DNA of 37,627 nt from a virus (Duplodnaviria > Heunggongvirae > Uroviricota > Caudoviricetes), in IMG/VR virus record IMGVR_UViG_2778261216_000004; one strand, written 5' to 3'. Under the pieces are notes generated by a model that did not search any database, was not told the DNA's origin, and saw only the letters and a list, made by a program, of their open reading frames with translations. Positions 2,272 to 32,930 of the stretch are shown one piece after another; position 1 is the stretch's first letter, and each line of letters opens with the position of its first letter. A program made the translations under genes and the position numbers.

Positions 2272-2308
2272 CCAAAAAGAAAACCCGCAGTTTTTACGCT
2301 GCGGGCTT
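2272..2308 (-). terminator. Rho-independent terminator (hok-like transcript)
   Basis: On the minus strand, AGCCCGCAG-cgtaaaaa-CTGCGGGTT followed by TTCTTTTT, about 85 nt downstream of the hok-like stop. Confidence 0.5.
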
Positions 2309-2394
2309 GTTGTTCATGTCTGTGAGATAGGGTGCCTTATCGACCTTACCCTGGCAACCGATTGACGGGGGATTACTCCCCCGTCGCGGTTTCC

Positions 2395-2535
2395 TTACTG
2401 CTTACACTGTAAGAACGCCGCAAACTCCGCTCCCCAGAAGCTCATCCGTATTTCACACAGCGAACCGTGCAGCATCCAGATGATGAGGATTACCGTCACG
2501 CAGAATGTGATGGCCGTAAGCGATTTTTGCGACAT
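2395..2535 (-). CDS. hok: Hok/Gef-family type I toxin (small membrane peptide), not in the ORF track
   Basis: 46-aa ORF MSQKSLTAITFCVTVILIIWMLHGSLCEIRMSFWGAEFAAFLQCKQ with an AAAGGAG ribosome-binding site. It has a hydrophobic N-terminus, the conserved SLCEIR motif and an AAF motif as in Hok/HokA. The flanking UTRs are rich in hairpins. Confidence 0.7.
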   Translation of the reverse strand: MSQKSLTAITFCVTVILIIWMLHGSLCEIRMSFWGAEFAAFLQCKQ

Positions 2536-2726
2536 GGCGCTTGCTCCTTTGTTGGAGAGGCGCTAACCTATCACTTGCTTAAGGTAGATATGTTAGGGCC
2601 TCGGTTAAACAGAAATGTTTTCCGGGGCCTTTCCACATCTGGCCTTCGGGTATTCCCTCCGACCATCAGTCGAAAGGCACCCGCGCGTAATCTATCGCTT
2701 TTTTGTTGCTCCGGCAATTCTGCCCA

Positions 2727-3245: not shown

Positions 3246-4304
3246 ATGACAAAAACTATATCGATTTTTAATAACAAAGGTGGTGTTGGTAAAACAACTA
3301 TAATTTGGAATCTTGCAGTATCGCTAGCAGATAAAGGAAAAAGTGTTTTATTAATAGACTTTGATCCCCAGTGTAATCTCTCAATTGCATGTATTGGTGA
3401 TGAGGAATTTTCAGAGTTATTGGAACCTTCAGATGATTTCCCTTTTGGAAAAACGGTTAAAGCATTTGCATTGCCTTACATACAACAAAATACTATAGGT
3501 GAAGTTTATACAACAGAACCTAAGACTAAGACAGATGCAGGCGTTTTGCATATTGTTCCTGGAGACTTTTGGCTTAATACATTTTCAGATATTTTAAATG
3601 TCGGCACTGATGTTATAAGTGGCGCAGGGTTATATCGTTTTATTTTGCCAGATTTGATAACAAAAAAAGCATCAGAGAAAAATGATGTTATTTATGATTA
3701 TGTCCTAATAGATTTACCTCCCTCATTCAATACGCTTGTTAGATCGTCATTGTACTGCTCGGACTATTTTTTAGTTCCTTGCACACCTGATTTATTCTCT
3801 TCATATTGTGTAGGGCTGATTGGTGAGATGTTGCCATCATTTATACGTGATTGGGAGCAGGGCAAGGAAAGATATCTATCAGGTAACCCACGAGATAATA
3901 TTATATCTCAGAAAGGGATGCCTAAATTTGGCGGTTGGATATTCAATGGTTTTGATACGAGAAAGCAAAATGATGTTAAACAAGAGGTTGGTGCAGATGC
4001 AGTTCATCACCGTTCAATAAGAAAAGCGATAGAGGAAAAAATGCTTCCTCAGCTTTCACAGATTTCATCTTACAACGCGGTTCCTAATTTTACTGATTAT
4101 GAACCAGTTGGAAAGATTGAGGACCTCAACGTTATGGCTCCTGATAGTATTATTCAAAATATACCTATTCGCTATTTGTCTCGAGTTAGGCCAACGAATG
4201 CTCTTCGTGGGCGGGGGCAATGGGCAGTTAATCAGGTAGAACTAATGAATGAGATGGCTGGTGAGTATGATCATTTAGCTGAACACATAATAAATAATTT
4301 TTAA
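3246..4304 (+). CDS. Orphan ParA/MinD-family ATPase with an uncharacterised ~150-aa C-terminal extension
   Basis: Deviant Walker A NNKGGVGKTT, the DFDPQCN motif and a Walker B-like YDYVLIDLPP. The gene and its flanks are visibly AT-rich compared with the prophage. No parB-like partner is adjacent. Confidence 0.8.
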   Translation: MTKTISIFNNKGGVGKTTIIWNLAVSLADKGKSVLLIDFDPQCNLSIACIGDEEFSELLEPSDDFPFGKTVKAFALPYIQQNTIGEVYTTEPKTKTDAGVLHIVPGDFWLNTFSDILNVGTDVISGAGLYRFILPDLITKKASEKNDVIYDYVLIDLPPSFNTLVRSSLYCSDYFLVPCTPDLFSSYCVGLIGEMLPSFIRDWEQGKERYLSGNPRDNIISQKGMPKFGGWIFNGFDTRKQNDVKQEVGADAVHHRSIRKAIEEKMLPQLSQISSYNAVPNFTDYEPVGKIEDLNVMAPDSIIQNIPIRYLSRVRPTNALRGRGQWAVNQVELMNEMAGEYDHLAEHIINNF

Positions 4305-11286: not shown

Positions 11287-11442
11287 TTTAACGTATGTCG
11301 CCAATTTCCTGATGAAGGTGACTGGCGACTTGCTGTTGTATGTCCTTCTCAGAAAATTGTTTTTGAATAACAAATAACAGGATTTTATAATCTCTTAACC
11401 TTATAACATGTGTGGTCTGAAATAATAATTAAGGAGATTATC

Positions 11443-12015
11443 GTGCTGTCTTACTTAATGGCAATTCACTTTGTTTTATTTGGGGACTCTACTAATTTAA
11501 AAAACTTCTGGAAATATGAAGTAATTCGGCGGAAACGTATGGATATCTGGAGGCTTTTAAGAGAGAAAAAACAGCGTAACCGGAATTTCCTTTTCTGGTG
11601 GCGGTTGGCTAACGAAATGTATATTAATGGTAATAAATTACATAAGAAAGCAGCCAAAAAGTTAAACAGTAAAATAATTAACAAATTTGGTTGTGAAATT
11701 GGATTGGGCGCAAATATTGGAAAAGGGTTAACAATTCCCCATCATGCTGGAATTGTTGTTCATTTTGCTGTTGATGCTGGTGAAAATCTGGTGTTACGAC
11801 AGAATACTACCATTGGACAGATAGATGGTGACATGCCTGGTTCAAGAGTAAAAATTGGTAGTAACGTTGATATCGGAGCTAATTGTTGCATCATTGGATT
11901 ATCACGTAAAATTGGGGATAATGTAAAAATAGGTGCAATGTCTTTTATAAATAAAGATATACCATCGAACTGCACATATATAACTAAAAAGAGCGGTGTT
12001 GTATTGTATAAATAG
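11443..12015 (+). CDS. Hexapeptide-repeat (left-handed beta-helix) acyltransferase, accessory gene
   Basis: Repeats of the IG.N..IG type resembling WcaB/CysE-like acetyltransferases. GTG start with an AAGGAG ribosome-binding site. Visibly AT-rich. Sits at the position of P2 Z/fun. Confidence 0.7.
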   Translation: MLSYLMAIHFVLFGDSTNLKNFWKYEVIRRKRMDIWRLLREKKQRNRNFLFWWRLANEMYINGNKLHKKAAKKLNSKIINKFGCEIGLGANIGKGLTIPHHAGIVVHFAVDAGENLVLRQNTTIGQIDGDMPGSRVKIGSNVDIGANCCIIGLSRKIGDNVKIGAMSFINKDIPSNCTYITKKSGVVLYK

Positions 12016-12058: not shown

Positions 12059-12637
12059 TTATTGTGGGGCGACTGGCCACTCAACATCCGCTGCTACCGC
12101 TGTATTAACACGATTCAACAATACCCGGTATGTCTTCCATGCAGCCAGTAACGATGCCTCTTCCTCCGTTGCAATATCCAAATCTACGGCATCCTGAAGT
12201 GGCGCAATATGCTCGCTGGCTACCTGCATCAGGCTGTTTTTTGTTTCTTCCGCCTCCCTTATCCGAAACAGTTTTTCTGCTTCTGCATCTTTCACCCAGG
12301 ATGTGCCGTTCCACTTCTGATACTCTCCATACGGCGACAACCAGGTAACATTTTCCGGTAATGGACCGAGTTCAGAAATAAATAACGAGTCCCCTGATGC
12401 CACGTCATAAACCGTTTTACCCCGATGGTCTTCAACGAGATGCCACGATGCCTCATCACTGTTGAAAACGGCCACGAAGCCAGCCGGAATATCTGGCGGG
12501 GCAATATCGGTACTGTTTGCAGGCAGACCTGTATGAGGCGGAATGTATGCGTCACCTTCACCAATAAATTCATTAGTTCCGGCCAGCAGATTATAAATTT
12601 TTATGGTCCGTGGTTGTTCACTCATTCTGAAATCCAT
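12059..12637 (-). CDS. G: Tail fibre assembly protein (G-like chaperone)
   Basis: Tfa-like N-terminus ([24 protein letters not shown]). Start set at an internal ATG 3 codons into the ORF. Confidence 0.8.
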
Positions 12638-27693: not shown

Positions 27694-28005
27694 TTATTCA
27701 GGAAATAACGCCCGGATATTTCCGGCCATCTGACTGGTTATCTGTGCGGTTGATACTGGCTGTGATGCGGGGCGTTCTGTCCTGGTTTGTGTCACTGATA
27801 ACGCTTCATCACCAGCCCATGCAGCCAGTCGATAAGCCTCTGCCGGATTCATTTTCAGAAGTGCCAGCCCGGCCAGAAAAGCCACGCGTTGGCCGCTTTT
27901 GCGGGCTTCTGGTGTAAGGCTGTCCAGCCAGGCGCATGCTTCTCCTTCGTTCTTGACGGCGGTGGGCTTCAGATAGAAACTTATCCGTCTGGTTGGAGTC
28001 GTCAT
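27694..28005 (-). CDS. parR: ParR-like DNA-binding adaptor
   Basis: RRISFYLKP...ARKSGQRVAFLAGLALL resembles R1 ParR (RRTIAFKLNP...RAALTAGLAL). AGGAG ribosome-binding site; the ATG lies 4 nt after the parM-like stop. Confidence 0.55.
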   Translation of the reverse strand: MTTPTRRISFYLKPTAVKNEGEACAWLDSLTPEARKSGQRVAFLAGLALLKMNPAEAYRLAAWAGDEALSVTQTRTERPASQPVSTAQITSQMAGNIRALFPE

Positions 28006-28009
28006 TGGT

Positions 28010-28969
28010 TTACTCCTTGTCCATTGCGTACAGCCCATTAACTAGAGCAAACTGTGGCACCCCGTCCGCGATGAAAGTCGCATTAACTCCGCAGGCTTCG
28101 CGGATAGCGGGTGCCACAATCTCCGCCCCTCCACCGACAACCATCACCCGCCCGTAACCCGAAAAACCCGCCAGCGCGCGGATCACGCGTTGTTTCAGTG
28201 TTTCTTCCTTTTCACGAATTACCGCCATCAGGCTGGCGTAATGCGCGTCATTGTGGATGTGCTGGCGCAGCCAGGCTTCATCATGGCGATGTTCGATAAT
28301 GGTATTGGCGATGTGGTGACTGGTGCGCATACCGTTAGTGGCCATCACCGACAGTACGGCATCGGCCATCAGAGAAACGCCCACGTGTGGATCGCAAAAC
28401 ACCTGGCTGATACCTGCCAGTTGCCCCTGAACCTTTGCCACATCCAGCGTGGTTCCGCCCAAATCCACAATCAGCAGGGATTCAAACGGACTCATGTCAG
28501 CCAGTGCCTTAAAGCCAGCCGGAATGGATTCAGGCATAACCCGTACGTTACGGATAGTGAATGCTTCGCCGTTCTGGTACTCCACCGGGCGCATGACGTT
28601 CGCTTTTTTGCGGTTGATGTTGGCCATGTCCGGCTGTGCGTTTGTATCGAAATACTCGCTTAGTGGCAGGGTGACAACCACATCCACTTCCTGTGGTGTG
28701 ATGCCTGATTTGACCAGCGCGTGATGAATGGCAATTATATTCACATCGCTGTACTGGTATTGCGTGTCGGTCGTCTGGACAAAGCGATCGCTGACCGGAT
28801 CAAAACCATAGCGCACGCCATCAAGCATGTAGTTCGCGGGCTGCGTGCCACCGAACGGCGCAGACCATTCCGACTTGAAGCTGTTCGGGCTGATGGCGTT
28901 GCGGCGTTCGCCGTTCTCAGTCCATGCCAGCTTGATGTTGGTGGAGCCGTCGTCGATACAAATTTTCAT
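28010..28969 (-). CDS. parM: ParM/StbA-like actin-like ATPase
   Basis: MKICIDDGSTNIKLAW...ISPNSFK...YQYSDVNIIAIHHAL...LIVDLGGTTLD...VGGGAE closely follows R1 ParM motifs (MLVFIDDGSTNIKLQW..., IIDLGGTTLD, VIGGGAE). Confidence 0.8.
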   Translation of the reverse strand: MKICIDDGSTNIKLAWTENGERRNAISPNSFKSEWSAPFGGTQPANYMLDGVRYGFDPVSDRFVQTTDTQYQYSDVNIIAIHHALVKSGITPQEVDVVVTLPLSEYFDTNAQPDMANINRKKANVMRPVEYQNGEAFTIRNVRVMPESIPAGFKALADMSPFESLLIVDLGGTTLDVAKVQGQLAGISQVFCDPHVGVSLMADAVLSVMATNGMRTSHHIANTIIEHRHDEAWLRQHIHNDAHYASLMAVIREKEETLKQRVIRALAGFSGYGRVMVVGGGAEIVAPAIREACGVNATFIADGVPQFALVNGLYAMDKE

Positions 28970-32544: not shown

Positions 32545-32723
32545 GGTGTGGCCCCTTGTGTAGTAAGTTGTGAAAACTCACCATCCAGAGCTGCGAAACT
32601 GTGGGTGGCGAGACGTACGAGGTTCGCAGTACCGGCTACACAAGAACCCGGCCCGACCGAAGTCGGCCCCGTACGCCCCGCCATAATTCTGACGCGAAAA
32701 AGACGTGGCAATACAGTACGCAC

Positions 32724-32744
32724 AAAAAAACCGCTGGCGCGGTT
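32724..32744 (-). terminator. Rho-independent terminator on the minus strand inside the early region
   Basis: On the minus strand, AACCGC-gcca-GCGGTT followed by TTTTTTT. Confidence 0.55.
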
Positions 32745-32930
32745 GTGCGCTTGTGTAGTCAGCAGGCTGCGAAACCCGGCACCCGTTTTATGAGATGCAG
32801 CGGAAATGTAACCTGACTGATTGCGGCATGGCAAGCGGTTTTTGTGTTGCGTACAGTGGTGTGTATAATCGCGGCACAAAAATAGAACGTGCCGAAGGAT
32901 ACTGGCATTTATTGACAATGGAGGTCGCTT

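Follow-up and report, generated by a model that had tools for sequence, protein, structure and literature searches.

The viral record IMGVR_UViG_2778261216_000004 (Caudoviricetes) is a stretch of 37,627 nucleotides, the whole of which we call the window. At about 2272-2717 it very likely holds a complete hok/sok-type type I toxin-antitoxin cassette, carried as self-contained cargo by a P88-like E. coli prophage of the P2 family. The toxin gene in it (2395-2535, minus strand) is a genuine member of the Hok/Gef family. The cassette is an already known object: it is annotated and catalogued, and it belongs to an experimentally sampled Hok cluster. The only aspect that might be new is that the whole cluster appears to lack mok, the leader frame that overlaps hok in plasmid R1.

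The hok open reading frame (ORF) encodes a peptide of 46 amino acids (MSQKSLTAITFCVTVILIIWMLHGSLCEIRMSFWGAEFAAFLQCKQ) followed by a TAA stop. All hok features given below lie on the minus strand as well. The ribosome-binding site, AAGGAG at 2549-2544, stands 8 nt before the ATG. A single hydrophobic helix near the N terminus comprises residues 6-22 (LTAITFCVTVILIIWML); the segment is uncharged, with a mean Kyte-Doolittle value of 2.58 (2.66 for R1 Hok). The motifs SLCEIR and AAF occupy residues 25-30 and 39-41. The original prediction, made by reading the sequence, had named the ORF, its good ribosome-binding site, the hydrophobic N-terminus and both motifs, and all of them are found. The Hok-family profile search that it proposed gives 30.1 bits with Pfam HOK_GEF (PF01848; gathering score 22, E = 3.7e-7), with residues 7-44 aligned to profile positions 5-42 of 42. 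In an alignment of the peptide with R1 Hok, HokA and members of Hok clusters 72 and 73, residues C12, T14, L26, C27, E28 and E37 are invariant. They correspond to the family-wide conserved residues C16, T18, L30, C31, E32 and E41 in the logo of a 2026 survey of Hok peptides (bioRxiv 10.1101/2025.08.07.668861).

Homologues of the cassette were collected from contigs representing one genome per species, from plasmids, from phages and from IMG/VR; a profile search of the contigs with a three-member alignment gave 7 loci. Of 71 unique homologues with 60-97% nucleotide identity, 68 have an intact hok ORF of 46 or 47 amino acids; pseudogene copies exist in the cluster too (L013, L015 and L016). The three codon positions of hok vary at 0.108, 0.055 and 0.163, a pattern typical of coding sequence. 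In the leader it is 0.114-0.117 in every frame, that is, without coding periodicity.

RefSeq contains the same peptide under the accession WP_000078920.1, "Hok/Gef family protein". The original prediction had described the locus as missed by the ORF track; this is true of the first-stage track, but RefSeq annotates exactly this ORF. Of 5426 complete E. coli genomes, 1544 (about 28%) carry the 396-nt module (2325-2720), and the records listed annotate it as Hok/Gef. A genome may have as many as 7 copies. Of the 1976 places where the module occurs, 17 belong to plasmids, and plasmid records carrying the cassette number 34. According to the Hok survey, hok occurs in almost 80% of Enterobacteriaceae genomes and is enriched in prophages (bioRxiv 10.1101/2025.08.07.668861). 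Our peptide belongs to its cluster 72, which is classed as high-abundance (Table S2, Escalera-Maurer et al.). Two members of this cluster, 72_1621 and 72_1589, were cloned under an arabinose promoter for toxicity assays; 42 of the 45 peptides assayed were toxic, and the non-toxic ones named (19_179, 60_1482 and 69_1540) are all from outside cluster 72 (bioRxiv 10.1101/2025.08.07.668861). The first member, 72_1621 (MSQKSLTAITFCVTAILIIWMLHGSLCEIRMSFWGAEFAAFLQCKQ), is identical to the window peptide at 45 of 46 residues, the sole change being at residue 15 (V15 in the window, A15 in 72_1621). The second is the Stx-phage variant and is 76% identical. Cluster members and the window peptide have a common length of 46 amino acids and a common WGAEFAAFLQCKQ tail, and nothing substantial differs at protein level. 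The expression assay by which the original prediction wished to check toxicity has therefore in effect been done elsewhere, on the near-identical 72_1621. A literature search for hok/sok in P2-like prophages returned nothing specific. We count the finding as already known because of the RefSeq annotation, the membership in the best-studied type I family, the reported prophage enrichment and the near-identical toxic peptide. The survey deals with coding sequences only; mok (which is hard to call), Sok and the mRNA ends are outside its analysis (bioRxiv 10.1101/2025.08.07.668861).

The cassette is also a reminder for annotation, as small toxin ORFs and antisense RNAs escape ORF-length cutoffs. 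In several phage records, those of 933W and VT2-Sakai among them, a homologous hok gene lacks annotation. Identical or near-identical cassettes were further seen in assemblies labelled as a Planococcaceae metagenome-assembled genome, Vagococcus sp. and Xanthomonas pisi (L006, L007 and L010); these copies most likely come from E. coli or phage DNA that contaminates the assemblies.

Positions 1-996 of the window belong to the host gene flk on the minus strand; after it comes an entire P2-family prophage with the integrase at its far end. E. coli JNE151685 harbors a near-identical prophage (99.9% over 851 nt) between flk and pdxB. Its genes are arranged in the order flk, DNA methyltransferase, Com, Hok/Gef, Ogr/Delta, ParA-like, gpD-like and tail genes, and further on Cox, repressor and integrase. 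The closest phages are P88-like (Xuanwuvirus, Peduoviridae), with 95-97% identity. From the gene order in the window, the JNE151685 prophage and the P88-like relatives we conclude that the cassette sits near a prophage end, 1.4-1.7 kb inside the flk-proximal one, between ogr and the com-methyltransferase genes. Together with the Pfam match, this agrees with the hok/sok-like type I toxin locus that the original prediction had put near the end of a prophage.

The predicted full-length hok mRNA runs from 2682 to 2275, its 3´ end lying past the T-run of the terminator. We place +1 at G2682 because the local match of the Rfam hok/sok leader model RF01794 (2547-2682, model positions 1-157, E = 5e-10) begins there at model position 1. 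Upstream of it, the putative hok promoter has a -10 box TAGATT at 2689-2694 and, 17 bp upstream of this, a -35 box TTGCCG at 2712-2717. A TA..(A/T)T hexamer at fixed distance from GGGTGCC is present in all 73 unique homologues, and TTGCC of the -35 box in 56 of them. The promoter is conserved despite 33 distinct upstream DNA contexts among these homologues, and the -10 box is invariant between P2-type and Stx-phage copies. The assignment of this promoter, and likewise that of the Sok promoter described below, rests on conservation and on position relative to R1. About 190 bp of structured leader had been expected from the original prediction. The strong fold stands, but the leader measures 147 nt (2682-2536) and the remainder of that interval is promoter. 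The 406-nt transcript has a minimum free energy (MFE) of -170.5 kcal/mol (z = -7.27 against shuffles), in accord with the highly structured mRNA that is known for hok and had been invoked for this locus.

Apart from mok, the predicted anatomy of this RNA looks canonical for hok/sok. The tac element (GGGUGCCUUUCGACU, 2668-2682) forms the 5´ end and pairs in the MFE fold with the complementary fbi element (GGUCGAUAAGGCACCC, 2330-2345). Its alternative partner is a ucb-like box (GGAAAGGCCCC, 2624-2634), part of which pairs in the closed form with the GAGG region (helix 4). The GAGG at 2599-2602 is the counterpart of the R1 mok Shine-Dalgarno sequence; its G81, G83 and G84 are invariant and A82 is kept in at least 90% of the aligned sequences. 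Next comes the Sok target region (2571-2595), the most variable part of the leader, in which or just downstream of which stops occur in three frames. The hok Shine-Dalgarno sequence is enclosed in a hairpin at 2537-2563 (GCGCCUCUCC / GGAGCAAGCGC), helix 8 of the MFE fold, with 9 pairs and 95.7% of cells paired. It is paired in every predicted fold, full-length and trimmed.

Downstream of the coding sequence, the 3´ untranslated region (UTR) contains a stem-loop at 2363-2386 (GACGGGGGA-GUAA-UCCCCCGUC) with 10 pairs. Its helices 16 and 17 are 100% paired across homologues and show 5 compensatory pairs. The core arms GACGGGGG and CCCCCGTC lie at 2364-2371 and 2378-2385, a small coordinate correction to the perfect stem reported before. 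By analogy with R1 (PMC9841398), this stem-loop is likely the hairpin that protects the end of the processed mRNA. The rho-independent terminator, also foreseen, occupies 2272-2308: a stem at 2308-2281 with 10 pairs (6 of them G-C) is followed by TCTTTTTGGT (TCTTTTT). It is common to P2-type copies and absent from Stx-phage copies. Homology with the latter covers only 2330-2703, from promoter to fbi, and the terminator is supplied by local context. The scanned region of 751 nt (2150-2900) contains six terminator-like sites, against 1.0 expected.

Comparison of homologues argues that this structure is maintained. We kept 52 mRNAs with pairwise identities below 97.5% and with 60-97% identity to the window. 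When the full-length fold of the window is laid on them, 92.7% of cells fall in standard pairs as against 39-44% in slid controls, a percentage that is inflated relative to these controls because the tested fold was derived from the window sequence itself. Double-sided changes occur in 31 pairs (3-11 in slid controls). The covariation score reaches 0.160, where the controls give 0.034-0.055. The tac-fbi helix (2682-2668/2345-2330) has 15 pairs, of which 94.6% of cells are paired, and 4 compensatory pairs, so that the closure expected of a hok mRNA is conserved. The Sok-target segment pairs in the full-length fold with the 3´ UTR at 2359-2343 (helix 6, with 6 compensatory pairs), and because of this pairing the target would be hidden in full-length RNA. 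RNAalifold, applied independently to the same alignment, predicts the tac/ucb stem (columns 1-11 with 52-61), with double changes at two pairs (UA to CG and CG to GC). As the closed fold is conserved and the tac/ucb stem is found as well, both conformations of an R1-type switch seem to be encoded.

On the plus strand, the leader contains a convergent predicted Sok gene, in line with the antisense RNA suggested by the original prediction. Its putative -35 box TTGCTC (2541-2546) lies opposite the hok Shine-Dalgarno sequence and is separated by a 17-bp spacer from the -10 box TAACCT (2564-2569). The -10 box is present in all unique homologues except one, which has TATCCT. The -35 box reads TTGCTC, TTGACT or TTGCCT in most homologues and TTGTCT or TTTACT in few. 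The predicted Sok RNA of about 60 nt (2576-2635) is fully complementary to the same positions of the hok leader. Its predicted fold (-26 kcal/mol, z = -4.1) leaves 10 nt free at the 5´ end and forms a long hairpin at 2595-2631, the design known for Sok. Variability in the leader is highest (0.31) at 2592-2578, the complement of the Sok 5´ tail, and 0.02-0.15 in flanking blocks; such a peak is expected if recognition specificity diversifies. In the mRNA as a whole, variability is lowest at tac, at ucb, at the hok ribosome-binding site and at the hok 3´ end.

The part of the textbook arrangement that the window does not follow is mok. In R1, an AUG at 116-118 comes after the mok Shine-Dalgarno GAGG (104-107). 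Ribosomes must translate mok as far as the hok ribosome-binding site or beyond, and mok stops upstream of the hok start abolish toxicity (PMC9841398). The original prediction had cited the overlapping mok frame as general knowledge about hok mRNAs, and in the window copy it is not present. At the place of the R1 mok AUG the window has AUA/AUC. All three frames are closed before the hok ribosome-binding site by TAA 2581-2579, TGA 2573-2571 and TAG 2565-2563, and no ATG, GTG or TTG occurs between these stops and the hok ATG. We considered as mok candidates the R1 position, non-canonical starts and the ATGs at 2666 and 2638, and rejected them, as none reaches the hok ribosome-binding site in the window copy. 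The two ATGs open short upstream ORFs of 31 amino acids (ATG 2666 to TGA 2571) and 19 amino acids (ATG 2638 to TAA 2579). Both stop before the hok Shine-Dalgarno sequence, at -35 and -43 relative to the hok start.

The same holds for the cluster. An ATG, GTG or TTG 3-11 nt after GAGG was found in one of 71 unique cluster mRNAs. Because it is missing in the other 70, absence of the mok start is a trait of a successful lineage and not a recent lesion. Across homologues, the end of the upstream ORF that reaches furthest lies between -69 and +137 relative to the hok ATG, and its frame varies too. In 23 of 68 copies this ORF overlaps hok, in 12 it ends at -30 to +3 and in 32 further upstream; the class of the window, with its end at -35, is the commonest (20 copies). 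Cluster mRNAs keep tac, fbi, ucb, GAGG, the Sok target and the putative Sok promoter, while indels in the hypervariable Sok target reshuffle the upstream ORFs. We therefore propose, tentatively and aware that it may well prove wrong, that the whole Hok cluster has dispensed with R1-type mok and that, if the loci are active, Sok controls hok without an overlapping leader ORF. Such control might be exerted via the short upstream ORFs (their AUGs at 2638 and 2666 lie under the 3´ part of the Sok duplex), by blocking of a standby site, or by mRNA decay alone. Coupling via the short ORFs is possible but not compelling, because a ribosome stopped at UGA 2573-2571 would extend no further than the foot of the hairpin 2563-2537. 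If our proposal is true, the cassette represents a distinct regulatory variant of a textbook type I toxin-antitoxin system, in a lineage found in some 28% of complete E. coli genomes. The R1 model treats mok coupling as essential; an abundant prophage lineage devoid of mok would show, as a natural test, whether that requirement is general or specific to R1.

Several observations weigh against a complete and working cassette. Among them are the missing mok frame and the lack of any start codon between the leader stops and hok; by the R1 rule on mok stops (PMC9841398), the window copy might be untranslatable. The covariance-model check proposed by the original prediction came out divided: RF01794 is matched end to end, but its 49.7 bits are below the gathering score of 59, for which reason the default Rfam scan returned no match and missed the leader. 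A consensus promoter scan called neither the hok nor the Sok promoter, both being weak by comparison with the sigma-70 consensus; the hok -35 box stayed unflagged because it scores only 8 of 12. The MFE fold of the 3´-trimmed transcript does not adopt the tac/ucb conformation. The predicted Sok RNA has no proper U-tract, only UUU after its stem, and its 3´ end is uncertain for that reason. To these we add the inflated pairing percentage mentioned above.

If the cassette works as R1 and hokW-sokW do, the full-length hok mRNA would be stable and inert, untranslatable and not bound by Sok. Slow trimming of the 3´ end would remove fbi, upon which the 5´ end would refold onto ucb and expose the target. 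Abundant but short-lived Sok would capture the processed mRNA, and the duplex would be degraded, in part via RNase III. Once Sok transcription stops and Sok decays, processed mRNA would be translated. Hok would then insert in the inner membrane and collapse the membrane potential, resulting in growth stop or death. Prophage addiction is the classical logic of the hok family. The original prediction had proposed post-segregational killing or abortive infection. We suggest, with low confidence, that the cassette acts as a selfish module which stabilises the prophage by making loss of the prophage costly, and maybe speeds up lysis after induction.

The alternatives differ in what they let the cassette do. 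That there is no gene at all, the ORF being a chance one in an untranslated spacer between ogr and com, we regard as practically negligible. It has only 46 codons and many such ORFs appear nearby in the mechanical ORF list, but a Pfam match above threshold, an identical annotated RefSeq protein, conservation across 60-97% identical DNA with codon periodicity and a near-identical toxic peptide (bioRxiv 10.1101/2025.08.07.668861) led us to reject it. A more serious doubt is whether the locus is still alive. It might be a regulatory relic with an intact toxin ORF and lost mok coupling, in which Hok is never translated and the cassette is silent and drifting. The upstream ORFs that fall short of the hok ribosome-binding site, the effect of premature mok stops in R1 (PMC9841398), the hok Shine-Dalgarno sequence paired in every predicted fold and the pseudogene copies in the cluster would all fit this. 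Drift is, however, difficult to reconcile with a hok ORF that stays intact in nearly all unique copies and varies with codon periodicity, or with promoters, tac, fbi, ucb and 3´ hairpin that are conserved or covarying across at least 33 insertion contexts. The upstream-ORF arrangement of the window is moreover the commonest class, and the R1-type mok start is missing as a property of the lineage. We consider a relic very unlikely. Several chromosomal hok loci of E. coli K-12 are reportedly inactivated, a finding ascribed to Pedersen and Gerdes in 1999.

Two other readings keep the same device and change its job. In one, Sok vanishes on induction and early membrane damage by Hok advances lysis and release of the phage. 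We consider this doubtful. In its favour, hokW-sokW, the only prophage hok/sok tested experimentally, is reported to aid phage release: after mitomycin C, sokW RNA is lost and HokW appears RecA-dependently, and deletion halves phage release (PMC8621323). Stx phages also carry a cluster-72 copy downstream of lom besides hokW. Yet hokW falls in a different Hok cluster (HokD-like, 51 amino acids), so that its result is not simply transferable. The cassette is found on plasmids as well, in the places and records counted above, and timing of lysis is irrelevant there; it has its own promoter and terminator and no sequence tie to late-gene control. In the other reading the cassette serves defence. 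Once an infecting phage has halted host transcription and Sok has decayed, Hok would kill the cell early enough to keep the invader from maturing. With R1 hok/sok on a high-copy plasmid, T4 plating fell by 42%, as cited in PMC8621323, and the cassette lies in a variable cargo region, beside a methyltransferase and a lone ParA-like ATPase. The T4 effect, as cited, is modest and needed high copy number; a heading of the Hok survey speaks of no hok enrichment near defence systems (bioRxiv 10.1101/2025.08.07.668861), and PADLOC has no model matching the hok peptide. A defence role seems quite unlikely to us.

Comparison with named systems places this cassette more precisely. It is like hok/mok/sok of R1 in its Pfam family, in a similar leader length and in the distance from GAGG to the hok AUG (67 nt in the window, 70 nt in R1). 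Common to both are also closure of the mRNA by tac and fbi, the alternative pairing of tac with ucb, sequestration of the hok Shine-Dalgarno sequence, a 3´ hairpin that is likely protective here too, and a convergent promoter for Sok, putative in the window, with its -35 box overlapping this Shine-Dalgarno sequence. They differ in that only R1 has an AUG after GAGG and a leader ORF overlapping hok, in their location (plasmid in R1, prophage here) and in the toxin, which has 52 amino acids in R1 and 46 here with 28% identity. The window leader also departs from RF01794 far enough to stay below its gathering threshold.

Phage records label the protein of the window as "MokW-like host killing", which suggests identity with hokW. 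We rejected it. hokW-sokW of the Stx2 prophage Sp5/933W is another locus in another cluster, and HokW has 51 amino acids, starts with MKQQKAM and belongs to the HokD cluster (35_712). The label is misleading because the relative of the window gene in 933W/Sp5 is a separate ORF downstream of lom. This second hok of Stx phages lies just downstream of lom in 933W (NC_000924.1, L004, 2501-2638) and in VT2-Sakai/Sp5 (AP000363.1, 44701-44838). It encodes a peptide of 46 amino acids, 76% identical to that of the window and assigned to cluster 72, and is unannotated and distinct from hokW. Among NCBIfam models the best match is HokA (NF007290), with which the peptide has the pattern W-M...SLCE...AAFL-CK in common. 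Orthology to HokA was rejected as well, at 35.8 bits against an equivalog cutoff of 89 and with 37% identity.

Some further features of the prophage were observed along the way. Next to the cassette, at 1226-2168 on the minus strand, there is a gene of the Com type with a zinc ribbon (Pfam Zn_ribbon_Com, 44.5 bits), which overlaps with the beginning of a gene for an N6/N4 DNA methyltransferase (PADLOC MTase_II, 211 bits). This layout at the prophage end by flk resembles com-mom of phage Mu, with the methyltransferase replacing Mom. Further upstream, both a promoter-like site (2221-2194) and a hairpin (2205-2225) were noted. On the other side of the cassette, between ogr and a gpD-like tail gene, stands the lone ATPase of the ParA/MinD type (3246-4304, plus strand; Pfam AAA_31, 104 bits). 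Its sole PADLOC match is weak (PDC-M28B, 30 bits, P-loop only), and phage P88 has no gene at this position; the ATPase may be cargo of a variable region.

Other RNA elements were found at a distance. In the early region of the prophage, two Rfam matches at gathering level are neighbours on the minus strand: C4 antisense RNA at 32601-32688 (83.2 bits) and isrK at 32724-32798 (63 bits). A full-length match to Rfam IS009 RNA (12096-12294, minus strand, 192 bits) lies beside an ORF of 201 amino acids at 11410-12015. The JNE151685 counterpart of this ORF is annotated as a recombinase and has tail-fibre assembly genes on either side; this is probably an invertible tail-fibre segment. Finally, the JNE151685 counterparts of the genes at 27694-28969 (minus strand) bear the annotations ParM and plasmid partitioning/stability protein, and such a plasmid-type segregation pair is unusual for an integrated prophage of the P2 family.

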